Virus record (IMG/VR): IMGVR_UViG_3300025160_000004
Span: 1-45,149 of that record
Length of the DNA stretch: 45,149 bases
Direction: 5' to 3' (one strand)
From: a virus
Lineage: Duplodnaviria; Caudoviricetes
Shown here in pieces: positions 9,944 through 27,752 of the stretch. The stretch's first letter is position 1; the number at the start of each line of letters is the position of its first letter. The translations under genes and the position numbers were made by a program. The notes beneath the pieces were generated by a model. That model searched no databases. It was not told where the DNA came from and saw only the letters and a program-made list of their open reading frames with translations.

Positions 9944-9972
9944 TTGACACCTGCGCACATATGCGCTACTTT
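9944..9972 (+). promoter_or_regulatory. sigma70-type promoter with a palindromic operator in the spacer
   Basis: TTGACA-17 nt-TACTTT; the spacer contains GCGCA-N4-TGCGC. Confidence 0.75.
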
Positions 9973-10033
9973 ACGGTGTCGGGGCAATCGAGCCCCGACA
10001 GAGAGAGTGCCCAGCAGGGCACGGGAGAAAAAA

Positions 10034-10261: not shown

Positions 10262-10277
10262 AGAGGAGAGCGGAAAA

Positions 10278-10875: not shown

Positions 10876-10878
10876 CGC

Positions 10879-11076
10879 GTGACTGACCGCGCCCTCCTCC
10901 GTGCCGCGATAAAATGCGCGGGCTCGCAGTCCCAGCTCGCGCGCGACACGGGCATCAGCCGCCGTGCGATCACCAATTGGACGCACGGCGGCAATATCAC
11001 GCCTATCTATCGCGCAGTGCTGGAGCAGTACGTCGCGGGACGGATCGCGGCGGCCTCAGCCGCCAGCCCTCAGTAG
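10879..11076 (+). CDS. Cro/Xre-type HTH protein (Aca- or antitoxin-like)
   Basis: GSQSQLARDTGISRRAITNW helix-turn-helix; GGAGG RBS. Confidence 0.8.
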   Translation: MTDRALLRAAIKCAGSQSQLARDTGISRRAITNWTHGGNITPIYRAVLEQYVAGRIAAASAASPQ

Positions 11077-11469
11077 CAGCGCGCCACCAGCACCGATGGG
11101 CGGCAACGCGGTCCACAACTCCACCAGGATATAACCCTTTCGCGGTGATTCGTGGCGGGTCATTGTCAAACACTCCACCTGCTTGTCATCGTGATACAGC
11201 AAGCCCTTCACGGCATCCAGCAAAACCTTGGCGCGGTTATCCAGATCGCCAGATTTGCATGAGCGATACCAGGCGAGACTGATACCGACCGGGCCATCCA
11301 GCGGGAGTTGCTGCCGTTGTATTGCTGTCGTCTGCCGCCTGTAGTCCGCAAGTACCAGCGTTGAGTACGCGCGCGCATCTCCGGATTTGACCGCCCGGCC
11401 ACGAAATACGCGCCAGTAGCGATTGCTCGATGGTGGCTCGGGTAGTCGCAACGATAACAATGCGCTCAC
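11056..11469 (-). CDS. rusA: RusA-family Holliday junction resolvase
   Basis: LPEPPSSNRYWR, DLDNRAKVLLDA and DDKQV motifs. Confidence 0.9.
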   Translation of the reverse strand: MSALLSLRLPEPPSSNRYWRVFRGRAVKSGDARAYSTLVLADYRRQTTAIQRQQLPLDGPVGISLAWYRSCKSGDLDNRAKVLLDAVKGLLYHDDKQVECLTMTRHESPRKGYILVELWTALPPIGAGGALLLRAGG

Positions 11470-11745
11470 TTACTCGCCCCCACTGCCGGGCCGCGCGAAC
11501 AGCGTCCCGCCGCGCACGGCCATCGTTGAGACATCTGGCGCGATTTTCTGCGCGGTTTGTTGCAGCATCAGATTTACAAATTTCGCCCGTGCGTCGTCCC
11601 GCTCCTGCACGATCTTGAGTATCTCGGCCTCCAGTGCGGCGCGGGCGTCCAACTCGTCATCCTCTTCGCCGTGACCGTGCGATTGATACAGCAGCTTGTC
11701 AATCGCCACCGTCACGGCTTTCGGTAGTGCGGGCTGCTCAGTCAT
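11470..11745 (-). CDS. hypothetical protein
   Basis: Packed ORF abutting rusA. Confidence 0.6.
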   Translation of the reverse strand: MTEQPALPKAVTVAIDKLLYQSHGHGEEDDELDARAALEAEILKIVQERDDARAKFVNLMLQQTAQKIAPDVSTMAVRGGTLFARPGSGGE

Positions 11746-12010
11746 GGCTTATCTCGCTTCTGATGTGCTTGAGTCTTTTGAGCGCCGCGCTGTCGGCTTC
11801 GAGCTGCCGGTACTCCCTGACGGTAATCTCCACTGTGATTTCCTCACTCACCCCAGCAACGCTACTCTGTGCTGGGGCGGCGTCAGAGGCTTGTGTTTTA
11901 GGTTGCGGAACGAACGCAATGCATGCGCAGTCGCGCGACATGCACCAGCCTCCTTCGTGTCGCTCTCGACTGTGCCCACACCTGCACGGCTCATACGCCT
12001 CGGCGTTCAT
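11738..12010 (-). CDS. Cys/His-rich hypothetical protein
   Basis: CRCGH...H...C...CAC; ATGA-coupled start at 12010. Confidence 0.6.
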   Translation of the reverse strand: MNAEAYEPCRCGHSRERHEGGWCMSRDCACIAFVPQPKTQASDAAPAQSSVAGVSEEITVEITVREYRQLEADSAALKRLKHIRSEISHD

Positions 12011-12333
12011 GCGCGTTGCGGCCATGCAAACTGACATTCCTGATCGCCAGCCGTCGCACTCGTAATCCAGAGCACATCGTTGCCATCGAGGAACAGTTGA
12101 CCGTTGACCGCGCTGGTTTCGTTGCTACCCCACACTTTCGTGATGAGCATCGGGAACACGTCGCCTGCTTGCGCGTTGTTGCCAACGTGAGCCTGAGCGC
12201 CACCGGGCCATTGCGGCGGCTCGGCTTTCATGCGTGACGCAATACTCGCCCCGTCAGTGCGGCGACGATTTATCTGGTGCGCCTGATCCTGATTGATCTT
12301 GTAGTGAACGATCCTTCCGATTGTGGGAATCAT
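12007..12333 (-). CDS. conserved phage hypothetical protein (PTIGRIVHY...WP type)
   Basis: GGAG RBS; recognisable N- and C-terminal motifs. Confidence 0.7.
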   Translation of the reverse strand: MIPTIGRIVHYKINQDQAHQINRRRTDGASIASRMKAEPPQWPGGAQAHVGNNAQAGDVFPMLITKVWGSNETSAVNGQLFLDGNDVLWITSATAGDQECQFAWPQRA

Positions 12334-12421
12334 TTTGTTCTCCTTGTGCGCGGTCTCGCGCTGTTGTGCCGAGGGGACGGCGGGTTGCTCTCGGTGTTTC
12401 TTGTGCATGGCTTCCAGTTCT

Positions 12422-12769
12422 TCATAGCCCATCGTCTGGTGTCTCCCCCTTGCGGCGCTTGCTGCGAACCCTGCTTTGTCGCGCTGGCGCGTCAAGAAAG
12501 TGTTCGATGAACATCGCTGTTTTGCGCTTACACAAATACCCCTTGTTGCTAAACACGTTGAGCAGCGCAATCCCCTCCGCACCAATGACGAAATACCATT
12601 CGGCGTCACAACTCCACGCCATCGATGCCCAAGGCGATCCGGCGGGAATGCCGATTGGGGCTAAGTCCCCGTCCTCAACCGGCTCCATGCTCAAGGGCTC
12701 GTCGTTAAATAACACAAAGTCTTTGCCCGGCTTTATCGCGAAAAACCAATCTCGGCACATTTCAGCCAT
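12422..12769 (-). CDS. hypothetical protein
   Basis: Overlaps the upstream stop by 8 nt. Confidence 0.55.
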   Translation of the reverse strand: MAEMCRDWFFAIKPGKDFVLFNDEPLSMEPVEDGDLAPIGIPAGSPWASMAWSCDAEWYFVIGAEGIALLNVFSNKGYLCKRKTAMFIEHFLDAPARQSRVRSKRRKGETPDDGL

Positions 12770-13403
12770 CGGTTGTCTCGCTTGCTGCTGCGCGGGTGAG
12801 GTAGTCGCGGACCGTGCGGAACTGGCCCACAGTCGTTACCGACGCGTCCTCTCGCTCAATGTGATAAAACGCCGCCAGCGCTTCTCCCGCTCCTGCTGGT
12901 GCGCTCTCTGGCTGCGAGGACGCGGCGGCGAGTGCATCACGCATTTCCCGCACGACGCAAATCAGTTCCTCGCCCGTGCGAACGTCTTTGCGCCCGGCCG
13001 CTTCTCGCAATGCGTTCGCAACCTCTTGCGCGCGTGCCGCCTCGCGCTCCAGCGCTTCGATGTGAAGGCGGTTGCGGCCGTTTTCTCCAATCAGGCCAGC
13101 GTGTTCGTGTGCGTGGTTGTTCGCCCATTCTTGAAGCCGAGTAACTTCAGCTTTTAGTTTGGTTATCAAATCGGGAGCATCGTCCATGTCGCTCGTCTCA
13201 CTTGTCGCGGCGGCGCGTGGCTCCTGTGCGACGGCGGCCAAGTGTTCGGTAGCGGCGATGAAATCGAGAAGCGCGTCTTTGTGCTCCCGCTTGTCCGTGT
13301 GCTTCGTGGCATTGTCCACCGCTTCCACGCACGCGAACAGAACCAGCATCGTCGCTATGTGACTCGCCTGTTGCGCTGTCGGCGCGGTTGAGTCGCTAGT
13401 CAT
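12762..13403 (-). CDS. hypothetical coiled-coil protein (Ead/Ea22-like accessory type)
   Basis: ATGA-coupled; modular helical segments. Confidence 0.6.
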   Translation of the reverse strand: MTSDSTAPTAQQASHIATMLVLFACVEAVDNATKHTDKREHKDALLDFIAATEHLAAVAQEPRAAATSETSDMDDAPDLITKLKAEVTRLQEWANNHAHEHAGLIGENGRNRLHIEALEREAARAQEVANALREAAGRKDVRTGEELICVVREMRDALAAASSQPESAPAGAGEALAAFYHIEREDASVTTVGQFRTVRDYLTRAAASETTDG

Positions 13404-13615
13404 TCGATTGCCTTCAGCGCTTCGTATGCCACGATCATCGCTGGCAGATCGCCCGTTGCCAGCGCTCGTGTGGCGGCGTCCAAATCCGCGCGTATCATGG
13501 CGAGCCCAAAGGCGCCAGCCGGACCAATGCGGATGTACTCTGGCACGATGACATCTCTCACGTGCGCCATGACTTTCGGCAATGCATCTCCGAGTGTTTC
13601 TATTTTTTCGCTCAC
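13400..13615 (-). CDS. conserved phage hypothetical protein (71 aa, IGPAGAFG)
   Basis: GTGA/ATGA coupling on both sides. Confidence 0.7.
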   Translation of the reverse strand: MSEKIETLGDALPKVMAHVRDVIVPEYIRIGPAGAFGLAMIRADLDAATRALATGDLPAMIVAYEALKAIE

Positions 13616-14337
13616 GCTTCCGCCTCTGTAGGTGCAGGGTAATTGGTGTCGCGCCACACGCACATTTCTTGATAATCGTGTCCGCGTGCGCGCCATCCGG
13701 CTTCCGCCGCCGCTCTTTGCGCTGCTACGATGGCGCGGGAGTGTGAGGTCTCCAGCTCTTTGATTCTCGCCGCCTGCGATTCGACAGCATCGCGTAACGA
13801 TTCGATTTCTGCGACGTTCTTTCGCGACTGCTCGTTTGGTAAATCCCACACCGCGTCTTTCGACATTCCACGCAACGCGAGATCAATCAGCGCGAGCGAG
13901 GCGCACAGCTTTTGTATCTCGGAGGCCGCGTGCAGATTATCCTCTCTTAGCTCTGCCAGCTCGGAAGCTGCATGACGGAGCAGGGCGACACGCTTCGCGG
14001 CGGCTTCCTCAGCAGTGGGGGTTTTCGGGGTGGAGTTTTCTATCAGCACTGCCCAAGCTACCAGCTCCGCATTCGTTTGGCTCGGGGGCTGGGAGCACTT
14101 CTGTTGCAACAGATAGCAGCGCAGAATGTTAAACTCGTGCGTCGTCACCACCGATGCGTCTTGATCCTCAATGCTCTCGAATGCGGTTAGAGCCTCATCG
14201 ATGCTCACTGGTGGCTCCGGCAAAGGCGCAAGCGCGTCCTGAATACGCACGACCTCTGCGCGCGTACTGCTGGCGTCACGATCTGCGAGCATGCCAATCG
14301 CTTGCGCAATCAGCGCGCGTTTTTCTTCGGTGGTCAC
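13612..14337 (-). CDS. hypothetical coiled-coil protein
   Basis: Coupled; shares a module with 12762-13403. Confidence 0.6.
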   Translation of the reverse strand: MTTEEKRALIAQAIGMLADRDASSTRAEVVRIQDALAPLPEPPVSIDEALTAFESIEDQDASVVTTHEFNILRCYLLQQKCSQPPSQTNAELVAWAVLIENSTPKTPTAEEAAAKRVALLRHAASELAELREDNLHAASEIQKLCASLALIDLALRGMSKDAVWDLPNEQSRKNVAEIESLRDAVESQAARIKELETSHSRAIVAAQRAAAEAGWRARGHDYQEMCVWRDTNYPAPTEAEA

Positions 14338-14597
14338 AGCTTGCCGCCTCCCCGCTTCTTCGCCCGCTTGCGGCCAGCGACACCCGCCGTGAATGGCGCC
14401 GACTTCTCTTTCGGCATGTCGTCCCGTCCGTCGAGTGAGTAGAGGAAAACCGCGACACGTTCCGCCGCGTCCGCAACGGCCATCGTGATCGTCGCATTGT
14501 TCCAGATGGCGTTTGCAACGCGGCGCGCATCCCGTGCACGCAAGGTCACTTCTCGCGGTTTCACTTTCGGCGCTCGTTTCTCTGCTGTCTTTGTCAT
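14334..14597 (-). CDS. basic hypothetical protein
   Basis: Coupled on both sides. Confidence 0.55.
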   Translation of the reverse strand: MTKTAEKRAPKVKPREVTLRARDARRVANAIWNNATITMAVADAAERVAVFLYSLDGRDDMPKEKSAPFTAGVAGRKRAKKRGGGKL

Positions 14598-16145: not shown

Positions 16146-16543
16146 CCGTTATCCCGCCATAAATCTTTGGTGTTTGCCAGTTCGAACCAGAACGTTCTCG
16201 AGAACTCTTTTGCCTTGAGTGAGTCAATGCGCCGCGTTCGCATTTTATGGACGCAGTAGATGTAGTTGTCGCGCTCCTGATCTTTGTCCAGCCGGTCACG
16301 TCCGCACCCGGGGCAACCCTTCGACGCAACGCGCACGAGGGGGATGCGCCGAACATGTGGACGCTGCCCACCCGGGCGCACCTGTCCCCGCTGCGGCACT
16401 GGCTTTGGCGTGCGCACGGTGCATCTGTTGCTGTGCTTCCGCGGTGGCCCGTCGGCTGGCATGGGCACGTCGCCGAACCCTGAGCAGCCACAGCGATCAG
16501 CGAATCCGCCACAGCGCGGGCACTGGATGGCAGTCGCCGTCAT
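16142..16543 (-). CDS. Cys-rich (Zn-binding) hypothetical protein
   Basis: CPRC, CGC and CPGC motifs; coupled to the initiator. Confidence 0.55.
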   Translation of the reverse strand: MTATAIQCPRCGGFADRCGCSGFGDVPMPADGPPRKHSNRCTVRTPKPVPQRGQVRPGGQRPHVRRIPLVRVASKGCPGCGRDRLDKDQERDNYIYCVHKMRTRRIDSLKAKEFSRTFWFELANTKDLWRDNG

Positions 16544-16571
16544 GCCCGCCCCCGCGCGCGCTGAGATGACA

Positions 16572-17972
16572 TCATGCGGACGCTCGCATGTCGCCAGGTT
16601 TTGCATCGGCCATTGCAATGCGCTCACCAAGCCAGCGCATCACTGGCACGGCCATCGAATTACCGAGCGCCCTGTATTGCGCGCTGTCGGAAACGCCAGG
16701 GACTTGCGATAGATAATCGTCGGGGAATCCTTGCAATCGCGCGCATTCTTTCGGCGTCAGTCGTCGCACGGCCATGCCGGTCATTGTTGCACCGATGCGG
16801 TTGCTCCGTCCGCCACCCGCCATTGTCGCCGCACTATCACTAACACTTGCGTTGTACTCGTCAAATGCAACGGCGGGGATGTGATCTGTCGCGATGGTCG
16901 GTGATGGGTCGCCAGCCTCACCGATTCCAGTACCAGGCGCACCGCCGCTCGAACCTTCCGCGCGGTTGTTCGTCATCTTCTCGCCGCGGGATGCTTGCCG
17001 CATGTCGATGGTGATGATCTGTTGTGGCGGAACTACCGCGTTGACAGGCGGATGCAGATTGCCGTGATCGCCGCCGCCATGAATGCCACGCGCATCAAAT
17101 CGCCGCGGATCATCGTAGCAAGTGGTGAGCGGAACGCCGCGTCCAGTTCCGTCTTCGCTGGCGTCGTGACCTTCACCTTTCAGCGAATGAGCGATGAGTC
17201 CCGCATCATCGCGGAATCCTGAATGACCATCGCCATTCGATGTAATAGACGGCGCGATAACGACGTTATCGCGCCCGTTCTCTGGTTCGCTGTGCCACTT
17301 GGTACTGAGTGCGAATGCAACATCGGGAATCAGATTGTTGCCGTGTGCCTCCCGGTGTTCGCCGCCGCGGTCAATGCGTGTTGTAACTGGGAGGGCAATT
17401 CTCCCCCGCGCTTCTCTGCTCGGCGCAGGACTCCCCGACATGCTTTCGCGCTCAAATAGTACCGCCGCGGCACGTCGCCAGTCTCCAAGATGTCCGACAA
17501 CGAACACACGTCGGCGCCGCTGCGGAACTCCGAAGTACTGAGCGTCAAGCACTCTGTAGGCGAACCCATACCCGAGTTCTGCCAGTGCCCCGAGGAAGGA
17601 ACCAAAGTCCCGTCCTCCATCCGATGACAAAACTCCGGGGACGTTCTCCCATAGGACCCAGCGGGGGCGATATCGGTCAGCAATCGCAAGAAAGACAAGC
17701 GCCAGGTTGCCACGCGGGTCATCCAGTCCCTTTCTAAGTCCGGCGACTGAAAACGACTGGCACGGAGTTCCGCCGACGAGAACATCGACATCTGCATCTG
17801 GCCATTCCTTGAACTTTGCGATGTTGCCATAATTCGGAATCGTCGGGTAGTGATGAGCGAGAACGGCGCGCGGGAACTTTTCAATCTCGGCAAATGCAGC
17901 AGGCACCCAGCCCAGCGGATGCCAGGCAACAGTTGCGGCTTCGATACCCGAACACACAGACAGGTATCTCAT
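16572..17972 (-). CDS. DNA (cytosine-5)-methyltransferase, orphan
   Basis: Motifs I (CSGIEA), IV (GTPCQSFS), VI (ENV), VIII (QRRRRVF), IX (RRLTPKECARLQGF) and X (GNSM). Confidence 0.95.
   Translation of the reverse strand: MRYLSVCSGIEAATVAWHPLGWVPAAFAEIEKFPRAVLAHHYPTIPNYGNIAKFKEWPDADVDVLVGGTPCQSFSVAGLRKGLDDPRGNLALVFLAIADRYRPRWVLWENVPGVLSSDGGRDFGSFLGALAELGYGFAYRVLDAQYFGVPQRRRRVFVVGHLGDWRRAAAVLFERESMSGSPAPSREARGRIALPVTTRIDRGGEHREAHGNNLIPDVAFALSTKWHSEPENGRDNVVIAPSITSNGDGHSGFRDDAGLIAHSLKGEGHDASEDGTGRGVPLTTCYDDPRRFDARGIHGGGDHGNLHPPVNAVVPPQQIITIDMRQASRGEKMTNNRAEGSSGGAPGTGIGEAGDPSPTIATDHIPAVAFDEYNASVSDSAATMAGGGRSNRIGATMTGMAVRRLTPKECARLQGFPDDYLSQVPGVSDSAQYRALGNSMAVPVMRWLGERIAMADAKPGDMRASA
17330..17929 (-). 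CDS. nested +1-frame ORF, M.EcoHK31I beta-subunit-like; exact start uncertain
   Basis: 199-codon open frame containing SLSDILETGDVPRRYYLSAKACRGVLRRAEKRG. Confidence 0.5.
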   Translation of the reverse strand: MPGIRWAGCLLHLPRLKSSRAPFSLITTRRFRIMATSQSSRNGQMQMSMFSSAELRASRFQSPDLERDWMTRVATWRLSFLRLLTDIAPAGSYGRTSPEFCHRMEDGTLVPSSGHWQNSGMGSPTECLTLSTSEFRSGADVCSLSDILETGDVPRRYYLSAKACRGVLRRAEKRGGELPSQLQHALTAAANTGRHTATI

Positions 17973-18178
17973 CGTTCCGCCCCACCCGCGCCAGCGCCGG
18001 ACTTCCTGAGCCTGCGCGCCAGCACTACACGCGGCGCACTTTCGCCATCAAACTTTACGAGCATTGTCCCGAGTCGCCCCCGGATGCATTTACCGTCAGG
18101 GCGCAGCACAGCAATGCAGCGAGCGCCACGAAGTGCGGGATCTGTAAGGCGATCGCCGAGGTAGAAGTACGCTCTCAT
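17969..18178 (-). CDS. hypothetical protein (69 aa)
   Basis: Coupled on both sides. Confidence 0.65.
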   Translation of the reverse strand: MRAYFYLGDRLTDPALRGARCIAVLRPDGKCIRGRLGTMLVKFDGESAPRVVLARRLRKSGAGAGGAER

Positions 18179-18345
18179 TTCGCCCCCTTCCTCTGTTCAA
18201 GCGCCCATTTCAATGCTGCCGCCCTCGTGTTAAACGGCGCCGACACAAAAGCGCAGCCTGAGCTATCGCGCCAGACACCGACGTACTTGCCCCCCGGTAC
18301 CCGTTGCGTCCACGCTGTGCGGAGCTTGCGTGTGAGAGTGGTCAT
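18175..18345 (-). CDS. hypothetical protein (56 aa, MTTLTRKLRT...)
   Basis: Below the ORF-track cut-off; ATGA coupling at both ends. Confidence 0.6.
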   Translation of the reverse strand: MTTLTRKLRTAWTQRVPGGKYVGVWRDSSGCAFVSAPFNTRAAALKWALEQRKGAK

Positions 18346-19055
18346 GATGCGACCTTCAGTGCGCGGATATGCTCATGGTTCGCGGGCCACAGTTTCAGCG
18401 GGCGCGTCTCCTCGATGCTGATCTCCGGGATAACGCCCTGCCGAATGAGCCGCGGCAAAACACTGACTGCACTAGATGCGCTGGAGTAGTGGTGTTGCGT
18501 CTGGCGCACCGCTTCCTTCATCGTGATGCCGGGCGTTGCATGCACCACTGCAATCAGGTTTCGCACCGTTGACCTGAACGGGGACCAGTGATTCCCGCCG
18601 TTCGTGCCCGCCTTCGCGAACTCGCCACCCGTCTTCTGTTCCGGACTCAGGCATCGTTTGATGTGATATGTGAGCGCGGCACGCATCATGCGCGGCGCCA
18701 CCATCTCACTGATGCGCGTGCTGTACATGCTTTCGCGCGTATCAGGTATCACGCGCCAGAGCCCAATGCCCTTGATGCGCGCGTAGTCCTGAAACATCGA
18801 CTGGCAATTATTGGGCGCGGCACCGATGACGTAATGCGCCGCGTTGTACCACTCCACTAACTGAGACATAAGGTCAACGCTGAACGCCACCTTGGTCTCG
18901 ACGATCATCACAACGGGGCCATGTACCGCAACGATATCGGCGCGCTTGGAGCCGTAGCCGGTAGAGACCTCTTCGTATGTCTCATAGCCCCGCAACTGCA
19001 ATTCCTCAATCACGACGCGCGCTATCGCAGCCTCCGAATACTTCTCGCGCTTCAT
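18342..19055 (-). CDS. PD-(D/E)XK nuclease-like protein with a C-terminal wHTH-like region
   Basis: E...RADIVA...IVETK motif. Confidence 0.7.
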   Translation of the reverse strand: MKREKYSEAAIARVVIEELQLRGYETYEEVSTGYGSKRADIVAVHGPVVMIVETKVAFSVDLMSQLVEWYNAAHYVIGAAPNNCQSMFQDYARIKGIGLWRVIPDTRESMYSTRISEMVAPRMMRAALTYHIKRCLSPEQKTGGEFAKAGTNGGNHWSPFRSTVRNLIAVVHATPGITMKEAVRQTQHHYSSASSAVSVLPRLIRQGVIPEISIEETRPLKLWPANHEHIRALKVAS

Positions 19056-19104
19056 TCTCCCTCCCCCTTACCGCTGGCATGGACGGCGGGAAGCGTGATG
19101 TAGA

Positions 19105-19530
19105 TCATGACGGTGCTCCGGCAGCCAGCTCGTAAGCTCCCATTACGGCGGCGTGAACGTGCGCTGGGTCGATGATCGCTTCGTTCTCGTCGTAGGCCTG
19201 AAGCCCGAACAGCTGGGCCACTTGCAGCTCAATGCGTGCGCCGCGCGACTGCTCCCATCCGTTCAACGCAATCACCATGTGGCAGGACAGCAGCGAGCGG
19301 ATATCTTCGGCAAAGAACTCCCGGAGCATGAAATCTTTGTACTCGATGCGGTGCTCTTCGGGGTCGAACGGAACGCCGTACTTTTCCAGAAACACGCGCG
19401 ACGACGATGCAAACGGCGTGATGACGCGGTGCGCGGGATCGGCATCGCGCCACTCCTGTGCAACCCGCTCGAACTCGGCGACGTTGTAATCTTCGCGCCC
19501 CGTCATTGGGCCAGCGATGTAAATCCTCAT
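19105..19530 (-). CDS. DUF4406 / nucleoside 2-deoxyribosyltransferase-like protein
   Basis: IYIAGPMTG...N...F, D...L..C and L.GWEQSRGARIE motifs. Confidence 0.85.
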   Translation of the reverse strand: MRIYIAGPMTGREDYNVAEFERVAQEWRDADPAHRVITPFASSSRVFLEKYGVPFDPEEHRIEYKDFMLREFFAEDIRSLLSCHMVIALNGWEQSRGARIELQVAQLFGLQAYDENEAIIDPAHVHAAVMGAYELAAGAPS

Positions 19531-19579
19531 TTCTCGCCCTCCTGCGCAGCGATGCGGGCGGCGGCCATATGCAGCAGGT

Positions 19580-19732
19580 TCACGCTGCGGGCTCAATCGT
19601 GACGTACACTTCGGCGCCAAGCGGAAGCGAATCGAGCGCATCCAGGTATTTCCGGTAGCTCCTCGCGGTATTCGCCTCGAAGTCACCCGAAAGCGCCCCC
19701 GTACCAGTAAAGCCGTGGGTAAAGGTCGCCAC
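19580..19732 (-). pseudogene. chimeric 50-aa ORF (structural-gene-like N-terminus fused to the tail of a disrupted gene)
   Basis: MATFTHGFTGTGALSGDFE resembles the N-terminus of the 42770 gene; ends LPLGAEVYVTIEPAA. Confidence 0.5.
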
Positions 19733-19735
19733 AGT

Positions 19736-20113
19736 TCAGCGCCCCACCACGACGGTCTTTGGGTTCCTGCGCACAACCTGAATACCTGATGCGACCAGCG
19801 CTCGCGCGAACTCCGGGAACTCATCAGGCCGTAGGATCAGCGTACCTCGGTCACGCCAGTTGTTGCCTTTCTGCACAGCAATGGAAACAGACACCTGTTT
19901 TTTCGGTGACTGCTTCTCGGAGAACAGTGCACGCCATTTCATGCGACCAGCCTTCCACTGGTAGAACTGCTCGTTGTCGCTGCTGCCACCCGTTACCGGC
20001 AACAGCTTCACACTACCGATGCGCTTGTTCGTGTAGCCGGAACCATCTGCGTTGCGAACTGACTGCAACTGCTCGCTCTTGCTGTCAACGCGAAACTTTA
20101 ATTTGACCGACAT
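19736..20113 (-). CDS. probable fusion ORF (conserved-phage-protein N-terminus plus an inserted gene)
   Basis: MSVKLKFRV...NEQFYQW followed by unrelated sequence with an internal ATG at 19942. Confidence 0.5.
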   Translation of the reverse strand: MSVKLKFRVDSKSEQLQSVRNADGSGYTNKRIGSVKLLPVTGGSSDNEQFYQWKAGRMKWRALFSEKQSPKKQVSVSIAVQKGNNWRDRGTLILRPDEFPEFARALVASGIQVVRRNPKTVVVGR

Positions 20114-20306
20114 TGGGTTCTCCTTTGGGTTTTTGCCACAGGTGCAGGTAATACGGGTAATTGTTGATCCAATCGGCGCGCGGCGGGTGCAATTGCATCA
20201 TGCACTCATCTTCATCGAGACTGACAGAGAACGCGCCATTATTGCCATCGTGGCGCGAGGACGGCATCGGACCATCGCGAAGGTTCGGAGTTGCGCGCAT
20301 CAGCAA
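20085..20306 (-). pseudogene. internally deleted remnant of a conserved phage protein (GNNGAF...QLHPP...NN.PY.LHLW)
   Basis: Motifs normally far apart are juxtaposed; family recalled from memory, not searched. Confidence 0.45.
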
Positions 20307-20587
20307 ATCCTCGCGGCCGGAGAGTGGAATGGCGGCGCTACGCCGACGGCGGGGGTGCTACGGACTATCCCGTAGCTTTCGGTGACGTTTGTACGTGATT
20401 GCGGCTGATTGCGGTTCGCTCCGGCCAATTCGCGATTTCTACGGGGCTTACTCGGAGAAGCTGGCCACCCCCATACTATTAGATGGCTTGGCCACTCTAG
20501 CCACAACCATAGTCGTGCGGTCCTCGGTTCAATCGGGGAGCGCAGTACCCCGTAAGTGCGTGTCAGTAGTAGCTTTGTGAATTGCAT
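20300..20587 (-). CDS. bridging ORF over the att-arm region (doubtful protein)
   Basis: Overlaps both neighbours; composition looks non-protein-like. Confidence 0.3.
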   Translation of the reverse strand: MQFTKLLLTRTYGVLRSPIEPRTARLWLWLEWPSHLIVWGWPASPSKPRRNRELAGANRNQPQSRTNVTESYGIVRSTPAVGVAPPFHSPAARIC

Positions 20588-20665
20588 GCTTCCGCCGTGT
20601 CTGGCTTGATTGCGTTTGATTGCGGTTCGTGTTTCGTGCTTTGGTTCGTGTTCGGTAGTTCGTTG
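20396..20665. repeat. repeated TGATTGCG(G/T) pairs and TTCG(T/G)G runs; candidate integrase arm or Xis sites
   Basis: TGATTGCGG at 20396 and 20406; TGATTGCGT/G at 20607 and 20617; TGATTGCGGTTCG identical at 20406 and 20617. Confidence 0.6.
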
Positions 20666-20862
20666 TGCCGGATTAGCTCAGTGGTAGAGCAGCCGCTTCG
20701 TAAGCGGCAGGTCATCGGTTCGAGCCCGATATCCGGCTTCACTGCGTCGGGAAAGGCTGGGCACTCCTCACCCGGCAACGCGTCCTCCTGTCGTATAGAA
20801 CAGCCAACGCAGCGGAAGCCGAACGGGCCGCGTGAGCGGTGGGCGAAGAGGTGTCTGCTCAT
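20563..20862 (-). CDS. ORF reading antisense through tRNA-Thr
   Basis: ATGA-coupled start; His/Cys N-terminus, then tRNA-antisense-derived sequence. Confidence 0.35.
   Translation of the reverse strand: MSRHLFAHRSRGPFGFRCVGCSIRQEDALPGEECPAFPDAVKPDIGLEPMTCRLRSGCSTTELIRHNELPNTNQSTKHEPQSNAIKPDTAEACNSQSYY
20667..20738 (+). tRNA. tRNA-Thr(CGT), no encoded CCA; probable attP core
   Basis: GCCGGAT/ATCCGGC acceptor, GCTC D-stem, GCCGC-TTCGTAA-GCGGC anticodon arm, ATCGG-TTCGAGC-CCGAT T-arm. Confidence 0.92.
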
Positions 20863-21050
20863 GGTCGCCGCATTGCGTGGGTTGCCGACTTCGCATCCTG
20901 CAACACATTCTCGTAAGCGTATTCCAGCGCTTCATGATAACCGAGGCCGTAGTCCTTCTCGCATCGCGTGCGCAGCCGTTCCGGGGCACTGTAGCGAGCG
21001 ATCCGCCTTAGTGCGTCGTAAAGCGTCTGCGCCTTCTCTTTGTCGGTCAT
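20859..21050 (-). CDS. conserved phage hypothetical protein (63 aa, YGL.Y.EALEYAYEN)
   Basis: ATGA coupling at both ends. Confidence 0.65.
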   Translation of the reverse strand: MTDKEKAQTLYDALRRIARYSAPERLRTRCEKDYGLGYHEALEYAYENVLQDAKSATHAMRRP

Positions 21051-21289
21051 GCCCGCCATCCCGGATTGCGTGGGGTCGTTCGGGTCCGCCGTGAAATCCG
21101 GCTCGCCATACACCGCATCATCAGCGTCGTCCTCGCTCCCAATAGCAGTTGTGACACAGCCCTTCCGCGAATATCTCCCGATTCGCAATATTCGCAATCC
21201 GCAATCTTCGCATACATCATCGCGTCAAAATCTTCCCGCCTCTGGCGGTTGCGCTCGATGCGTTTCAGGTGGTGGAGGTGCATGGTCAT
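21047..21289 (-). CDS. hypothetical protein (possibly frameshifted)
   Basis: Coupled at both ends. Confidence 0.45.
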   Translation of the reverse strand: MTMHLHHLKRIERNRQRREDFDAMMYAKIADCEYCESGDIRGRAVSQLLLGARTTLMMRCMASRISRRTRTTPRNPGWRA

Positions 21290-22116
21290 CGCGGCGTCAC
21301 CGATTCCAAATGCGCGTCAAGAATCTTGCGCCCCTTTTCGAGCGACACATACATCCGTCGCCATTCCGCCAATGAGATGTCAGGCGGTTGTCCTCCAGCG
21401 GGACCATCGCACGCAAGCAACCGCTGGTCGCCCAGTCCGATGATCCCCATTGCGGTATTCACAGCGGAAGAAACGCAAGCGACATCCGTCACCAACATCC
21501 CTTCGTCTCCGTTGGCTGCTGCTTCGAGGTTCGCGATCTCGCTCAACAGTTCAGCCTTGGCGCGAGATGCCGCATCAAGCACGCGGCCATGTGGACGTCC
21601 TTGCGCTTGCAACCGCGCGGCTTTGCCAAGGTTTACATCGAAGCGCAAAACAATCTCGCGCATTCGCTCGCTCACTCTCAGAATGGGCGGGAGTCCATTG
21701 GGCGGAATGGTCATTGGTTGCCACCACGCCTCCTCTGGCGACATATCGTTGACGAGTTGCGCTTCGTATTCGCGGCGCTCATCTTCGTAGCAATCCCCGC
21801 AAAACCGAGCGGCCACCTGCATTGCCTGCATCAATTCGCTCTCATCATTGTCCGAATCCGTATCGCCCATAACCTCCTTATCGACAGCAGAGTGCAGCCG
21901 ACTGAGGGCGAACCGGATGTCGCGTAGGGCGACCCGGTTCGCCCTCTCGATTGCGGTCAACAGGGCAGCCCGCGCTATCAGCGTTTGTTCTCGCGCGTCA
22001 ATCGCCTCCTCCAGATCAACGGCGCCTTCTGCGAACGCAACGCGCGAGTGCTCCGTAATGGCACCTTCCAGCGCGTCAATTGCGCCCTCAATGTCGAGCC
22101 ACGATGCTTCTGTCAC
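21286..22116 (-). CDS. hypothetical modular protein
   Basis: 276 aa, coupled to the integrase stop. Confidence 0.65.
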   Translation of the reverse strand: MTEASWLDIEGAIDALEGAITEHSRVAFAEGAVDLEEAIDAREQTLIARAALLTAIERANRVALRDIRFALSRLHSAVDKEVMGDTDSDNDESELMQAMQVAARFCGDCYEDERREYEAQLVNDMSPEEAWWQPMTIPPNGLPPILRVSERMREIVLRFDVNLGKAARLQAQGRPHGRVLDAASRAKAELLSEIANLEAAANGDEGMLVTDVACVSSAVNTAMGIIGLGDQRLLACDGPAGGQPPDISLAEWRRMYVSLEKGRKILDAHLESVTPR

Positions 22117-23279
22117 TTCACCACCTCCTGCGCTGGCTTCTCCAGCATATCCGCCGTCTTCCGCAATTCAGCCTCGCGTTCCAGCAGGTAGTGATCACGG
22201 ACCACGGTAATGTCCTTATCCCCAATCCAATTCGCCGCCGTCTTCTCGCTGCCCGTCGCCGCGTGAATGTCCCCAGCAATCCCGCGCCGATGCCCGTGAG
22301 TTGATCGGTATTTGACGTGCGTGATCCCAGCGCGGTCCTCTGCAATGCGCATCGCCTGGTTGAGTCCCTGATATGTGTACGGGCGGTCTTTCGTCTTCTC
22401 CTGCGCCCCGAAAAACACGAACGGCCCCGCGTAGTCTTCAGCCAGCGCCCAGCCGTAACAGACCCAGAAAGCATCCACGACCGGCGCAGGCATTGGCTGC
22501 TTGCGTTCGTTCCCACGTTTGTCCAACTCCGCGCGAAACAGGATCGTTCCGGCATCGAGGTCGATATCCCGCCATTCCAGATGACGCGCAGCGTTCTGTC
22601 TGGGGCCACAGAAGGCGAACAGGGTAACCAGTGCCCACGCGCGCCATTCCTTCGCCTTGCGCGGGTCTAGCGCAGCCACGAGGGCATCCCGCTCGGCCCG
22701 CGAGTACTCAGACATCTGCTCCGCGCCCGCCAGCTGCTCCTTCGAGAACTCGGGGCGGTACGATGCCACCTTGGTAGGCGGTATCAAATCATCATCCACG
22801 GCCCAGCGGTAGACAGCGGTAACCAAGTTTAGGTGCGCAAGCACTTGGTTGGGCGCGTGCTTGAGTTTCAGCATCTCCACCTTGAACTCGTCCAGCTTGT
22901 CGCGCCTGACAGCGGAGGCCGAGGTGCGATCACCGATGAACTTCTCCCACTTGTTCCACCGTAGTTCGGCGGTCTGGCCGGTCTTATCGCGCCACGCGCT
23001 GTTCTTCCGGTTGCGGTATTTGCTCCACATCTCCCGCATCAATAACGGCTCGAATACTGGCCCGCCCCTGCTGTTCACCAGTTTGTCGTGTACGCCTTTG
23101 GCGAACGCCTTTGCCTCTGCTATCCCCTGACGGGTGTCAGGATAGGAGGCGGTGCGCACCTTCGGGTCATTCCACTGCACGCGGATCATGGACACGTCGC
23201 GGACTGGCTCCCTGAACACCTTCACGTAACCCGGTGCGCGTGGCCTGCCAACGGTGTCAATGATCTTGCGCTTCGTCAT
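22113..23279 (-). CDS. int: tyrosine integrase/recombinase
   Basis: CGPRQNAARHLEWRDIDL (R), DKRG (K), HGHRR (HxxR), IGD...HY (Y); ATGA-coupled start. Confidence 0.9.
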   Translation of the reverse strand: MTKRKIIDTVGRPRAPGYVKVFREPVRDVSMIRVQWNDPKVRTASYPDTRQGIAEAKAFAKGVHDKLVNSRGGPVFEPLLMREMWSKYRNRKNSAWRDKTGQTAELRWNKWEKFIGDRTSASAVRRDKLDEFKVEMLKLKHAPNQVLAHLNLVTAVYRWAVDDDLIPPTKVASYRPEFSKEQLAGAEQMSEYSRAERDALVAALDPRKAKEWRAWALVTLFAFCGPRQNAARHLEWRDIDLDAGTILFRAELDKRGNERKQPMPAPVVDAFWVCYGWALAEDYAGPFVFFGAQEKTKDRPYTYQGLNQAMRIAEDRAGITHVKYRSTHGHRRGIAGDIHAATGSEKTAANWIGDKDITVVRDHYLLEREAELRKTADMLEKPAQEVVK

Positions 23280-23614
23280 ACCGATTGCCTGCCAGCGTCG
23301 TAAGCGCTCGGCACATCTGCGCGCTGTGGAATTGCACAGGTGAGATATTCCCGTCGCCCCCTGATACCGTAGCGCGCCAGCCCGCACTCCATGAGAATGC
23401 GAAAACGGCGGCGCAAGGTGCGTTCAGAGTCGCCGGAGCGGAGCATCGCGTCACCCTCTGATATCCAGTTGGTGAACGGCTCGGCGGCCCATGCGATCGA
23501 GGCCAGCAGCTTCTCCAAAGCGGCAGCCTGGGATTCGTTGCCCATGCGCCGGAGCGTCTGCGCGTCACTGCGCGCGTCCGCGATAGCGGTAGCAAGGTCG
23601 TCAGTTGATCTCAC
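23276..23614 (-). CDS. putative excisionase / directionality factor
   Basis: Small wHTH-like protein (WISEGDAMLRSGDSERTLRRR) directly upstream of int. Confidence 0.5.
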   Translation of the reverse strand: MRSTDDLATAIADARSDAQTLRRMGNESQAAALEKLLASIAWAAEPFTNWISEGDAMLRSGDSERTLRRRFRILMECGLARYGIRGRREYLTCAIPQRADVPSAYDAGRQSV

Positions 23615-23736
23615 GCTTCCGCCTCTTTGCCCACGGCGACGGCGGCGCCGACCGGATGCATCTCGCCGCAGTACGGCCAGTCGGGGCAGCAGGCGTCTAT
23701 TGCCAAGTCCAGCGCGGTGTCGTCGTAATCGTTCAT
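23611..23736 (-). CDS. small hypothetical protein (41 aa)
   Basis: Coupled on both sides. Confidence 0.5.
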   Translation of the reverse strand: MNDYDDTALDLAIDACCPDWPYCGEMHPVGAAVAVGKEAEA

Positions 23737-24398
23737 CTCAGCGCCTTCAACAGGTACGGGTCCATATCCGGTTGCTTCACCAGCCATGACACGTAGTCGC
23801 TTGGTAGTTCCTTGACCGGCGCCCCTTTGTGCTTCCCGAACGCCATCACCTTCGGAATGCGCGCGTCCTCTGACAGTTCCCATAACTGCTCCCATGATTC
23901 AATACCTCCCAACTTTTTCGCCATCCGGTAAAGCAGGATCGCGGACATAAGAGCATCCGCCGCCGCGCCGTGCGCATTGCGCGCCAGTTCGCGCGCCCGC
24001 GTTGGCTGGAGCATGTACATCACCGCGAGTTGCTTGTGCGAGTCCAGCGTAGGCCACAGCGAGCGCGCCAGCGCCAGCGTACAAATGCGCTTGACGGGCG
24101 GCTCCCCAATAACCTTCCAGTCGTAATCGACGTTATGACCGACGATGTATTCCGTGCCCTCTGGCAAGTGGAAGCCAGCCGCGGGCGGACAGTCGGCAAC
24201 GTCGGCATCCTCGATCATGTGAGTTGCCATCGCGCCGTACTCAATTTTTCGGCCTGGGTTCCAGCGATGGGGTATGCACCCATCTTTAGAGATGATCGGC
24301 AGCCCGCCAACGATGCTGAGTTCAATCAGTGCGGATTCCACCAGCGCCACGGGCTCGGTGACGCCGGTCGTTTCGGAGTCAAAAACAAACACGCTCAC
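23733..24398 (-). CDS. DEDDh 3'-5' exonuclease (exonuclease X-like)
   Basis: FDSETTG, GHNVDYD, AHGAAAD and C-terminal FGKHKG...Y..WL. Confidence 0.9.
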   Translation of the reverse strand: MSVFVFDSETTGVTEPVALVESALIELSIVGGLPIISKDGCIPHRWNPGRKIEYGAMATHMIEDADVADCPPAAGFHLPEGTEYIVGHNVDYDWKVIGEPPVKRICTLALARSLWPTLDSHKQLAVMYMLQPTRARELARNAHGAAADALMSAILLYRMAKKLGGIESWEQLWELSEDARIPKVMAFGKHKGAPVKELPSDYVSWLVKQPDMDPYLLKALR

Positions 24399-25042
24399 GC
24401 GACGATCCTCATCGGCGGGAACTCGAAGTCCTCGAATAGCCCCATCGCCTGCAACTTCAACTTGCTTTCGTGCATGTATTCGGTGAACTGCGCAACGCAC
24501 TCCGCGAGCTTGGCGATGAACTCATCGTCGCGCTGGAAGCGGATCATCACCGGCGGCAGTTCGGGATTGTACGAGCAGAAGTCCCACCATTGGCGCTCTG
24601 TGATCCAGAGCCCGCCCTGTATCTGACATCGGTATTTCTCCTGCGCGTCACCCAGCAGGTAGCCGACGTGCGTATGTGCGGCTGGGCATTTGATTTCCAG
24701 CCCGCCATCGGTGCCAATCAGGCCATCGGGCGAGCATCCGGCACTCCGGTCATCGCGCAGCAGGAATCCGACTTGCTCAACGTCGTAGTCAGTCTGCAAC
24801 TCGTACCACTTCCGCGCCTCGTGCTCCATGATCGTGCCACGCTGCATAAAGTCCGATGTGGCGTCATCCAGTGGGCGCCCGATTAGCTGCTCCGCAAGTA
24901 GTTCGTGGCAATAGCCAGCAGCCGACGCGCTCATCTTGCCAGTCTTGGGCGTGATGATCTTGTGGAAGCTGCTGGCACCGGGGATGCCGATCTTCGCATC
25001 CAGCCACGCCTTTGTCCCTTGCTCAACGTCAACGCGGATCAT
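24395..25042 (-). CDS. YqaJ/lambda-exonuclease family protein
   Basis: QGT..W, RG...E..AR, CSPDG, EIKCP and QIQ motifs. Confidence 0.92.
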   Translation of the reverse strand: MIRVDVEQGTKAWLDAKIGIPGASSFHKIITPKTGKMSASAAGYCHELLAEQLIGRPLDDATSDFMQRGTIMEHEARKWYELQTDYDVEQVGFLLRDDRSAGCSPDGLIGTDGGLEIKCPAAHTHVGYLLGDAQEKYRCQIQGGLWITERQWWDFCSYNPELPPVMIRFQRDDEFIAKLAECVAQFTEYMHESKLKLQAMGLFEDFEFPPMRIVA

Positions 25043-25842
25043 TTGGCTTTCTCCTGCTTCCGCTTGAGCGTTTGTACCGCCTTGTCATATTCAGCCGCTG
25101 GCAGTTTGTCGAGGACTTCCACGCCCAGCCACGCGAGAAACTTCACGCGGTCAACCTTCGTGTCCCCGATCAAATCTTCGAGGCACGTCAGTTGGTCCTC
25201 AGTGATCGGAGTCGGGTCAACTACTTCGCCGTCCGTGTCGCCCTCTGGCGTGAGCCCCAGCGCGGCCATGAGCGTGCGGCGCTGCGCGAACGTCATCGCG
25301 GCGCCGTACTTCTGCTGATCGCTCATCGCCGCGTTCGTTGTTGTCGGCAGTGTAAAACTGGACGCGCGCGAGTGCCCGGCCTCGTGGATCACCGTACAGA
25401 TGACAGTGAGCATCCCGCCCGTTGCCGTGCTATCCCAGGTGTACGACAGTCCGTGCATGACGAGTACCGGCGCGATTGTCTTCGCTACTTCCTCAAGTGG
25501 CGCATAGGAATACGACATCCGCCCGCCCTTCTTGGTCGCAAAGTCTGCGTCCTTCGTCCTGTGGAGCGGCGGGCACTCCTGCTGGAACTTCGCCAGCGCG
25601 ATGTTGAACTCGCGCGCGGCGTCACGGTCTGCGATGCGCTCGTGCAATTCGACCAACTTCTCCAGCTCTGCGGCTGGCAGTCGTTCGCGGATTGCGATGT
25701 CGAACAGGTCCATGATTGACACCGGCGCCGTGCGTGGCGTCGTTAGCGCGCTTCGCGGTTCGTGAACGGATACGGCAGTGCTGCCATTCTCCACCAGCGC
25801 CGACTCCAATAGCGGGAGCCCTTCTTTCTGAATCTTGCTCAT
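25039..25842 (-). CDS. erf: ERF-family ssDNA annealing protein
   Basis: YSYAPLEEV and QKYGAAMTFAQRRTLMAALGL..EGDTDG. Confidence 0.9.
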   Translation of the reverse strand: MSKIQKEGLPLLESALVENGSTAVSVHEPRSALTTPRTAPVSIMDLFDIAIRERLPAAELEKLVELHERIADRDAAREFNIALAKFQQECPPLHRTKDADFATKKGGRMSYSYAPLEEVAKTIAPVLVMHGLSYTWDSTATGGMLTVICTVIHEAGHSRASSFTLPTTTNAAMSDQQKYGAAMTFAQRRTLMAALGLTPEGDTDGEVVDPTPITEDQLTCLEDLIGDTKVDRVKFLAWLGVEVLDKLPAAEYDKAVQTLKRKQEKAK

Positions 25843-26249
25843 CGCACAGCTCGTGCGTCTGCGCGAGCCAGAGCGCGGTTAAGGGCCGAGTTGGGCGAGA
25901 CGAGAACAGCTTCCGGCATGTCGGTAAGAATCCGCCGAACATCGCGCGCTATTGACTCGCCGCTCTGAGAGTCACGGAACTCCTGCAACTGCTTCCGCGC
26001 GTCCGCCTCTTCCTTGTCTGCCGCTGCCAGTGCTTCGCTGAAATCCTTGCCTTGGCCGATCCAGACAACTTCGTAACCCTCTTCGCCGTACCCGCCACGA
26101 CCGACGCGCCAGTCGTTGTCGTCGATCATTTCCCACACACCATCGCGCCCCCAGCGTGCTTCTACTGCATCATCCCGCCATGCTTTGCAGGATGTGCAAT
26201 CGCAATCGCTGAGAGCGGCATCGCTGCCATCGTGTACCCGCATTGTCAT
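25839..26249 (-). CDS. hypothetical protein
   Basis: GGAG RBS; coupled to erf. Confidence 0.6.
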   Translation of the reverse strand: MTMRVHDGSDAALSDCDCTSCKAWRDDAVEARWGRDGVWEMIDDNDWRVGRGGYGEEGYEVVWIGQGKDFSEALAAADKEEADARKQLQEFRDSQSGESIARDVRRILTDMPEAVLVSPNSALNRALARADARAVR

Positions 26250-26701
26250 ACTCCAACCGCCCCCGTTACACTTAAGGCGCAGGCGCTAGGGCTAAGAGGC
26301 GTCTGGCTTTCGCAAAGCGCCGGGGCTGATATCCTCGGCGTTTTGTTTACCACATCGGCTGATCCGGGCCGGACTTGAACCGGCATTTGTTTCTGGCTTA
26401 TCGCTTCCTCAGCGTTTTGGTGCACCTCTGCGCTGATTCCCCTACCGGACCATAGAAAAGCAGGGGCCGGAGTCGCACCGGCTACCTCCGGGTTATGAGC
26501 CCGGCGCGCTACTGTTGCGCCACCCTGCGATAGTTTTTCGCTCCCGCTACCAGTCGCTCTCGCGACAACAACACATTCCGGTCCTGCCTTCACTTCCGCC
26601 GCGTACTCCGACAACAAGAGTTGCGGGCGCTCCATGCAATGCTGACGGAATACTTGTGACCACCATACTGCGCACTTCTGCATCGGGACGGGCGCGGTCA
26701 T
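26246..26701 (-). CDS. 151-codon bridging ORF reading in sense through the tRNA/ncRNA cluster
   Basis: ATGA overlap with both the upstream stop and the downstream start. Confidence 0.4.
   Translation of the reverse strand: MTAPVPMQKCAVWWSQVFRQHCMERPQLLLSEYAAEVKAGPECVVVARATGSGSEKLSQGGATVARRAHNPEVAGATPAPAFLWSGRGISAEVHQNAEEAISQKQMPVQVRPGSADVVNKTPRISAPALCESQTPLSPSACALSVTGAVGV
26360..26451 (-). ncRNA. tRNA-like RNA (acceptor stem and T-arm, non-canonical interior)
   Basis: GGTCCGG/CCGGATC-A; GCCGG-TTCAAGT-CCGGC; internal TCAGCG/CGCTGA stem. Confidence 0.6.
26458..26529 (-). tRNA. tRNA-Met(CAT), initiator-like and atypical
   Basis: CGCAGGG/CCCTGCT with a C1 mismatch; CCGGG-CTCATAA-CCCGG (three G-C pairs); T-loop TGCGACT. 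Confidence 0.85.
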
Positions 26702-26943
26702 TGTCCGCCACTCTCTGCAAAGCTGCGCGCAAGGCCGATGGCCTTCTCTTCCATGCGGTCCAGCGCCGCTAGAGCGAAGATGTCGCACCCGCACACCTCG
26801 CACGGGCCGCTACGCTCGGCGTTCCCACTGTGCCGCCCGATAACCTCAGCGCGATAGGGGACGGACATTTCAGCGAGACAACGCGGGCAAGCGGTGTGCA
26901 CGGTGGTGGTGAGTGTGGCGGTCATTGCATGTAGAGTGGTCAC
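26698..26943 (-). CDS. Zn-ribbon hypothetical protein
   Basis: CPRC...CEVC; GTGA-coupled. Confidence 0.6.
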   Translation of the reverse strand: MTTLHAMTATLTTTVHTACPRCLAEMSVPYRAEVIGRHSGNAERSGPCEVCGCDIFALAALDRMEEKAIGLARSFAESGGQ

Positions 26944-27134
26944 GATGCCGCCTTCGCGTTCTTCGCTTCGATCTCGGCGTTGCGCTTCTCGGTGCGCTTG
27001 TCCTGCACCCAATCGGCCAGCTCGTCGTAGTCGATGCCGTGGCTTTCATTCATGACGGCGAAGAACGCACCGTCCGGTAAATCGTCGTGCATGTCAACGT
27101 GATCGCGGATGTATTCCCAGCGGGATTGTTTCAT
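26940..27134 (-). CDS. hypothetical protein (64 aa)
   Basis: Coupled on both sides. Confidence 0.65.
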   Translation of the reverse strand: MKQSRWEYIRDHVDMHDDLPDGAFFAVMNESHGIDYDELADWVQDKRTEKRNAEIEAKNAKAAS

Positions 27135-27340
27135 GCTTCTCTCCGATCAATGCGCAGCACTGCGGGCGCGTCCAATTCTGCCAGTGAGCGCTGCGCTTCG
27201 TCCTCAGCTTCGAGCACGCGCGTCAGTCTGTTTATCTCAACTGCGTCAACGCGGTTAGCGCGGTCGCGTGCAACGATTGAAGCCCGGCGCTGCTGTATTG
27301 CGGACAGCATGGAAGCGCGGGAGGTGATGATGGGTGTCAT
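27131..27340 (-). CDS. hypothetical protein (69 aa)
   Basis: Coupled on both sides. Confidence 0.6.
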   Translation of the reverse strand: MTPIITSRASMLSAIQQRRASIVARDRANRVDAVEINRLTRVLEAEDEAQRSLAELDAPAVLRIDRREA

Positions 27341-27519
27341 CGCATCACCTGCACGACGATGACGAGAATCGCGGCCACAACGGCGAGCCAGAACACGGTG
27401 ACGGCCACTCCGGCGATTATGTCAGTACTGTGGTGGCGTTGCCGCGACGGGTGGCGAGTTTGCGCAACCCTTGATTTCACCGTAGCGGCTGGCGAGCGTG
27501 AAAGGATGTTCCGTCTCAT
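27337..27519 (-). CDS. small membrane protein
   Basis: C-terminal hydrophobic helix. Confidence 0.6.
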   Translation of the reverse strand: MRRNILSRSPAATVKSRVAQTRHPSRQRHHSTDIIAGVAVTVFWLAVVAAILVIVVQVMR

Positions 27520-27752
27520 GCTACCGCCTGCGCTTCAGTCTCGACGCGGGGAGGAAATACGACCTCTCCCGGCCTTCCAATGCGCGCTGTGATGATTTGC
27601 TCAATGCGCTCGTGGCGCTGGCGGCCATTCACCACGCGCGAAACGAGAGAGGCATCGACTTCAGCTATGGCGGCAATCTCTTTTGTGCCGCCATGCCCTA
27701 GCCGCTCCTTCCTCTCCCAGCGCGTCAGTGATACCTTAATCTTTCTAGTCAT
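27516..27752 (-). CDS. Cro-like HTH regulator
   Basis: TKEIAAIAEVDASLVSRVVNG HTH; GAGG RBS; first gene of the early operon. Confidence 0.75.
   Translation of the reverse strand: MTRKIKVSLTRWERKERLGHGGTKEIAAIAEVDASLVSRVVNGRQRHERIEQIITARIGRPGEVVFPPRVETEAQAVA

Follow-up and report, generated by a model that had tools for sequence, protein, structure and literature searches.

The 45,149-nucleotide (nt) window analysed here is the whole of IMG/VR virus record IMGVR_UViG_3300025160_000004 (Duplodnaviria; Caudoviricetes), and the early operon on its minus strand is a real chain of interlinked open reading frames (ORFs). Walking the minus strand from 27752 to 11056, we found 43 ORFs and 42 junctions over 16.7 kb, of which 35 lie at -4 (ATGA or GTGA), 2 at -8, and one each at -1, 0, +3, -25 and -29; TGA is the stop codon of 42 of the 43 ORFs. 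The initial annotation had claimed that nearly all junctions from cro to rusA are short overlaps and that the largest gap is 3 nt, and both statements held, the widest gap lying exactly at 19733-19735. We consider it somewhat probable, judging from the sequence, that this operon is a lambda-nin-type array of translationally coupled cassettes, in which frame selection driven by reinitiation keeps in-frame scars.

The longest run built from -4 joins only starts at cro and comprises 17 ORFs over 7190 nt, as compared with a maximum of 9 ORFs and 1841 nt in 60 order-2 Markov simulations and 4 ORFs on the antisense strand. The strict runs thus have about twice as many ORFs as the nulls and are about four times as long. 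The whole 16.7 kb is covered only if overlaps down to -30 are allowed, in which case the nulls reach 4947 nt. The description of the operon as virtually unbroken therefore stood for the 43 linked ORFs and failed at the phage attachment (att) region, which is crossed only via the -25 (20587/20563) and -29 (20113/20085) overlaps. In the late region of the same genome, -4 joins account for 10 of 27 possible joins and the stop codons are mixed (TGA in 17 of 29); in seven segments of flanking host-side DNA, called with a rough caller, -4 spacing was found in 18 of 112 pairs. The difference from the 35 of 42 joins in the early operon argues for frame selection in the latter. Since a contig from another study spans 18390-21455 with zero differences from the window, the odd frames in that interval are not assembly errors. 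The longer DNA contigs listed for other samples are identical or one base apart and hold no informative indels, and no RNA dataset was among the sequencing runs listed as carrying the phage. Some junction sequences recur inside the operon (23614/13615/20587, 26943/18345 and 12769/11745).

In the mechanism that we favour, a ribosome that terminates at a four-base stop/start overlap could start again on the gene that follows. The tiny frames are likely scars left as cassettes came and went, retained because they are in frame. Frame-breaking junk would uncouple or overrun the next start and would be purged; shelter from Rho-dependent polarity may be a side benefit. The six mini-ORFs named in the initial annotation were all found, each with ATGA or GTGA at both ends, and they do not form one class. 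Coding scores come from a codon model for which 20 long genes served as the training set. The 31-amino-acid (aa) frame had been taken to bridge a gap, and this did not hold: it is probably a shadow frame, because its own score is negative (-0.18 bits/codon), whereas the frame from ATG 12432, in frame with 12333, gains 10.8 bits over 32 codons and has a stronger Shine-Dalgarno (SD) sequence (-10.5) than the frame from 12425. The two 18-aa ORFs have scores typical of coding sequence, the 41-aa and 56-aa ORFs score as ordinary small genes, the length of the 11-aa ORF does not allow a verdict, and fixed-length shuffles were uninformative for frames of 11-18 aa. The start context of the 56-aa ORF repeats that of the ORF starting at 26943 (20 of 26 nt). 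We found that the SD is weaker than that of the following gene in 9 of 9 chosen bridge ORFs (the six named and three added) and in 8 of 10 minis across five genomes. Bridges start at an ATG or GTG within the upstream TGA stop and end in the strong SD and the ATGA of the next cassette, an anatomy that would fit scars composed of a passive start in the upstream stop and an SD-bearing tail from the next cassette. A search of 244 loci revealed no convincing homologue for any of the bridge peptides. The idea that the bridges unmask a sequestered SD was rejected, as 19 of 43 starts were above the shuffle mean, with a mean z of -0.12.

Two longer ORFs bear on whether frame rather than peptide is kept. 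The DUF7694 remnant lacks about 45 conserved residues, in frame, as compared with three aligned homologues, and its motif lies near residue 28 as compared with mostly near 70-110 in 148 other matches; the longer homologues were missed by a word-index search and recovered by a later search. A single deletion would stay in frame by chance in one case out of three. In the 80-aa ORF, the cysteine pairs are divided between frames and the tail scores +16 bits in another frame versus -11.9 in its own, suggesting that this ORF, for which no homologue was found, is a candidate carrier of compensated frameshifts.

The least ordinary part of the operon consists of non-protein-like ORFs held open over tRNA-Met and the predicted attP. 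It had been claimed that longer ORFs cover the tRNA cluster and the att region; ORFs do cover both, with the correction that only tRNA-Met is on the operon strand and tRNA-Thr is antisense. The 151-aa ORF over tRNA-Met has a coding score of -0.05 bits/codon and is open in 0.1% of 2000 shuffles, and the region is crossed in 0.4% (strict rules, P 0.004) to 3.7% (lenient rules, P 0.037) of shuffles. Its Atlas structure model has a predicted local distance difference test (pLDDT) value of 0.32, and no usable match was found in the Atlas. The tRNA-Met itself, which we take to be initiator-like from its unpaired first position and GC-rich anticodon stem, lies within a same-strand ORF, such that its processing would cleave the early mRNA. 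Degenerate tRNA-like neighbours with a T-arm accompany both tRNAs, at 26357-26452 on the minus strand beside tRNA-Met and at 20476-20553 on the plus strand beside tRNA-Thr; ARAGORN with lowered thresholds was too noisy.

The host is likely a member of the Gemmatimonadota, because relatives of the integrase (12 of 401 Gemmatimonadota genomes, the named ones being Gemmatimonadaceae) and of the 112-aa gene upstream of it (14 of 401) sit in that phylum. Two integrase homologues, P0002 and P0004, are 82% and 73% identical. Lysogens of the Gemmatimonadota have their integrase facing a host tRNA at its 3' end, frequently tRNA-Thr(CGT). In the window, positions 20510-20534 match the 3' half of a host tRNA-Thr(CGT) at 22 of 25 nt, the best match of a local scan; two pairs of TGATTGCG repeats flank this match, and attP is predicted to lie there. 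An attP at this site would lie inside ORF 20587-20300, and therefore integration would split the operon. That ORF is open in 2.7% of shuffles. Lenient rules allow 1.4% of shuffles to cross the att region (P 0.014), strict rules none. The -25 join shares an SD motif with two -4 joins yet reads ATGC, as though the stop had been lost, which suggests that the relay once crossed here tightly and has since loosened. Three genes (20859-22116, minus strand) separate the integrase from the predicted att site, whereas in lysogen relatives the integrase abuts the tRNA. The phage-borne tRNA-Thr differs from five tRNA-Thr(CGT) genes of the host phylum, and as an intact att core it is disfavoured, since 20510-20534 fits better. 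It adjoins the predicted attP, which would target tRNA-Thr, and is possibly a replacement copy; an exact search with 32 nt of it in genome contigs gave 0 matches.

To weigh the bridging of gaps, we used an overlap-blind caller on a first set of 13 regions, the window and 12 relatives. Among 25 gaps of 6-150 nt, 15 were bridged by ORFs coupled at -4 on both sides; a further 13 gaps exceeded 150 nt, three of them in the window. Of the gaps whose flanks permit a bridge, 15 of 17 were bridged versus 4.0 expected (P about 1e-8), a result inflated by the fact that the limits of these regions were chosen after the chains had been seen; in the window alone, the figure was 3 of 3 (P 0.018). Several other observations also weigh against frame selection. 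A held-out set of nine regions was delimited blind and may contain some host DNA; there, bridges filled only 2 of 37 gaps of 6-150 nt and 2 of 4 permissive ones (1.36 expected, P 0.42), and 21 gaps were longer than 150 nt. The bridging excess thus applies to one tight subset and is not evident across the whole group. With joins limited to -11..+3, the chain stops at the att region, where the -25 join resembles a -4 join that has lost its stop, so that a break was tolerated. The genes that follow bridges carry strong SDs and have start regions with no more structure than shuffled sequence, so these genes may not need coupling. According to a 2025 review (PMC12548453), -4 spacing evolves easily, and an E. 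coli study cited there saw no coupling at -25, the range of the -25 and -29 overlaps here. The wider claim that translation itself, not the peptides, is selected thus survives in part: the first-set excess, the peptides without homologues, the in-frame DUF7694 deletion and the open frame over tRNA-Met speak for it, and the held-out regions against it.

Compared with other loci, the chain is among the tightest but still falls within the known range. In 80 viral loci matched by the methylase, strict runs reached 9 ORFs at most; these loci measure 4-20 kb, and many of them could not accommodate a long chain. Among 80 loci matched by YqaJ, the top strict runs were 17, 16, 12 and 10 ORFs and the other 76 did not exceed 7; all four top chains belong to close ERF/YqaJ relatives with a GC content of 64-71%. 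These relatives share with the window only ERF, YqaJ, xis, int or rusA. In the relative G404, which shares only ERF and YqaJ, 58 ORFs span 18.3 kb, bridges of 13 and 14 aa included, and none of the gaps is wider than 4 nt. One of its ORFs, coupled at -4 on both sides, reads across a tRNA-like fragment in antisense and on into a T5orf172/MUG113 domain. On its reverse strand, at 29764-30552 (L227/L228), the N-terminal part of a T5orf172/MUG113 gene contains an att-like tRNA fragment together with arm-like repeats; a 345-aa ORF of G404 had no Pfam integrase match and is an integrase by position only. In G403, a 117-aa ORF coupled at -4 on both sides likewise covers a tRNA-like fragment. In 5-6 of the 12 integrase loci checked, the integrase stop lies outside an ATGA/GTGA join (TAG or TAA in G001, G170, G113 and G158; CTGA in G129 and L006). 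As to whether coupling is conserved in relatives while peptides are not, some relatives that share almost no genes with the window have the same architecture, and others have ordinary gaps. Single-protein scans of viral contigs revealed no close relatives of the phage, and megablast against annotated phages gave methylase and tRNA matches only.

The arrangement itself has been described in print, with lambda, the right arm of mycobacteriophage Che8 and mycobacterial interspersed repetitive units (MIRUs) as precedents, and the window is an unusually long case. A "chain of interlinked genes" in lambda ninR was described by Kroger and Hobom in 1982, as cited in bioRxiv 10.1101/2020.10.05.325894, and a phage L preprint describes ATGA joins densely packed in lambdoid nin regions. 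As in ninR, small and mostly unassigned early genes are joined by ATGA beside replication and RusA-type genes, and the 26-aa ninA frame has a -4 join on either side, to ren and to ninB; the window likewise has ATGA/GTGA joins beyond chance, an early placement and ninA-like ORFs of 11, 18 and 18 aa. The lambda strict run, however, comprises 7 ORFs over 3.4 kb, as compared with two runs of 17-18 ORFs over 7 kb in the window, whose chain also holds recombination genes, integrase, att and tRNAs, and neither N nor Q is recognisable. As no nin, N or Q family match was found, the operon would work like nin without being a lambdoid nin region in the strict sense. In the Che8 right arm, 39 of 60 annotated junctions lie at -4, 33 annotated genes cover 10.5 kb and are separated by 2 nt at most, and between genes 52 and 53 lies an unannotated 15-aa ORF coupled at -4 on both sides (L242 7799-7846). 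The right-arm early operons of the high-GC temperate phages Che8, Myxococcus phage Mx8 and Arthrobacter phage Isolde differ from the window in having strict runs of 12, 12 and 7 ORFs and several real gaps.

Coupling at ATGA-type overlaps is experimentally established, according to PMC6728339 and PMC12548453. The latter names -4 as the commonest spacing and describes short ORFs, MIRUs among them, that serve only to deliver ribosomes to a -4 coupled gene, the peptide being irrelevant. MIRUs, as portrayed there, are repeated mobile units, whereas the bridges in the window are unique in sequence, only short junction motifs recurring, and look like cassette scars. The study of Huber et al. 2019 (PMC6728339) likewise concerns ATGA/TGATG overlaps with the SD inside the upstream gene, in gene pairs of H. 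volcanii and E. coli rather than in 40-gene chains or Gemmatimonadota. A literature search for phage ORFs over tRNA or attP with coupling returned nothing relevant, which does not imply absence from print.

One alternative is that continuous translation is selected mainly to keep Rho off the 17-kb transcript, in place of an N-type antiterminator; we regard this as unlikely. All 5 Gemmatimonadota genomes searched encode a Rho that scores above the family cut-off, the actual host genome not having been found. (A second Rho-like gene scores just below the cut-off, at 445-457 bits, in each of G001, G170, G216, G129 and G385.) The report that no N- or Q-like antiterminator is recognisable was upheld, as Pfam (76 ORFs), PHROGs (54 ORFs) and NCBIfam (34 ORFs) gave no N-, Q- or Psu-type match; the majority of the small ORFs have no assignment, however, so that absence of an antiterminator is not established. 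The least structured 78-nt segment of the transcript (20682-20605), third highest in C/G, is the att arm and is covered by an ORF, and the non-protein-like ORFs over tRNA-Met and the att region, with their counterparts in G404 and G403, speak for this explanation. Untranslated spacers would expose a rut-like tract in the att arm only, as the mini-gaps, at just 28-49 nt, are shorter than a typical Rho utilization (rut) site of about 60-90 nt. The transcript strand is G-rich overall (skew +0.06), and relatives tolerate many gaps above 150 nt, several of them of hundreds of nt. Lambda still uses both N and Q despite the same ATGA chain, N antitermination governing the genes past cro (PMC10695390), and ninA translation cut intrinsic termination at tR2 by only about 10% (PMC4824070). 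Extending this idea to a Gemmatimonadota-type phage group, in which a ribosome relay would replace antitermination, peptide-free frames over tRNAs and attP would keep a 17-18-kb transcript covered and integration would cut the relay, yields a proposal that we find distinctly doubtful.

Alternatively, compaction of a high-GC genome that uses TGA stops might have produced the chain as a by-product, with minis that are either real small proteins or untranslated accidents; we think this rather unlikely. Any TGA after A or G yields a -4 start, long chains go with high GC among the 80 YqaJ loci, and similar stretches occur in Che8, Mx8 and Isolde. Of the six named ORFs, four have coding-like scores and one is probably a shadow frame, and the held-out regions lack a significant bridging excess. 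This explanation accords poorly, however, with the far fewer -4 joins and mixed stops of the late region in the same genome, with strict runs so far above the nulls, with the 151-codon frame held open over tRNA-Met and with the DUF7694 remnant, which keeps its frame despite a lost conserved core. We prefer the array of coupled cassettes.

The 45-kb record is complete, with a terminal direct repeat of 99 nt (window 1-99 and 45050-45148) that fits a circular assembly, and its GC content is 59.6%. The phage is temperate and carries portal and terminase genes. The chain lies downstream of the weakly matched Cro-like gene and contains ERF, YqaJ, integrase and RusA genes, with family matches to a DnaQ-like exonuclease and DUF4406 as well (Table 1). 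A promoter-like site seen by eye, TTGACA-N18-TAGCTT, lies immediately 5' of the Cro-like gene and is absent from the promoter scan list; promoter and terminator scans of the window gave results at chance level. The divergent ORF beyond it had no family match in Pfam, PHROGs or NCBIfam. The C5 methyltransferase has a long low-scoring middle between conserved ends, and its Pfam match falls in two stretches. Between rusA and the late genes, a plus-strand island of four ORFs (9947-11076) carries another promoter-like site seen by eye, TTGACA-N17-TACTTT, and its last ORF, a YdaS/Cro-like helix-turn-helix (HTH) gene, overlaps the end of rusA by 21 nt.

Table 1. Features of the early operon and its surroundings (window coordinates).
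Feature	Position	Strand	Remarks
Early (pR-like) operon	11056..27752	-	43 ORFs, 35/42 junctions at -4
RusA resolvase, final gene of chain	11056..11469	-	PF05866
31-aa "bridge"	12330..12425	-	probable shadow of in-frame extension from 12432
11-aa bridge	16540..16575	-	-4/-4
C5 cytosine methyltransferase	16572..17972	-	PF00145
56-aa ORF coupled at both ends	18175..18345	-	+0.12 bits/codon
18-aa bridge	19052..19108	-	-4/-4
18-aa bridge	19527..19583	-	-4/-4; own SD weak, SD of next gene strong
DUF7694 remnant	20085..20300	-	about 45 core residues missing in frame; ends in -29 overlap
95-aa non-protein-like ORF over predicted att core	20300..20587	-	-0.10 bits/codon
Predicted attP	20396..20625	+	two pairs of TGATTGCG repeats around 20510-20534
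99-aa ORF through tRNA-Thr antisense and C/A-rich unstructured tract	20563..20862	-	ends in -25 overlap
tRNA-Thr(CGT), phage-borne	20667..20738	+	antisense to operon
80-aa ORF	21047..21289	-	second half better in other frames (frame scores)
Tyrosine integrase	22113..23279	-	PF00589
112-aa conserved gene directly upstream of integrase	23276..23614	-	excisionase-like by position
41-aa ORF coupled at both ends	23611..23736	-	+0.28 bits/codon
YqaJ/lambda-type exonuclease	24395..25042	-	PF09588
ERF single-strand annealing protein	25039..25842	-	PF04404
151-aa non-protein-like ORF over tRNA-Met and second tRNA-like fold	26246..26701	-	-4 at both ends
tRNA-Met(CAT)	26458..26529	-	operon strand; altered T loop
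First gene, Cro-like HTH	27516..27752	-	weak match, PHROG 769, E 4e-4
Divergent ORF in repressor position	27844..28179	+	assigned by position alone

The early operon is an extreme natural example of a known device, and it bears on how many reinitiations one ribosome can chain and on why phage early regions swap genes without loss of expression. For annotators, it suggests that frames of 10-25 codons between -4 coupled genes may act in cis. If the chain did shield the transcript from Rho, this would explain long early operons in temperate phages without recognisable N or Q proteins, and selected translation without a selected peptide would become directly testable.

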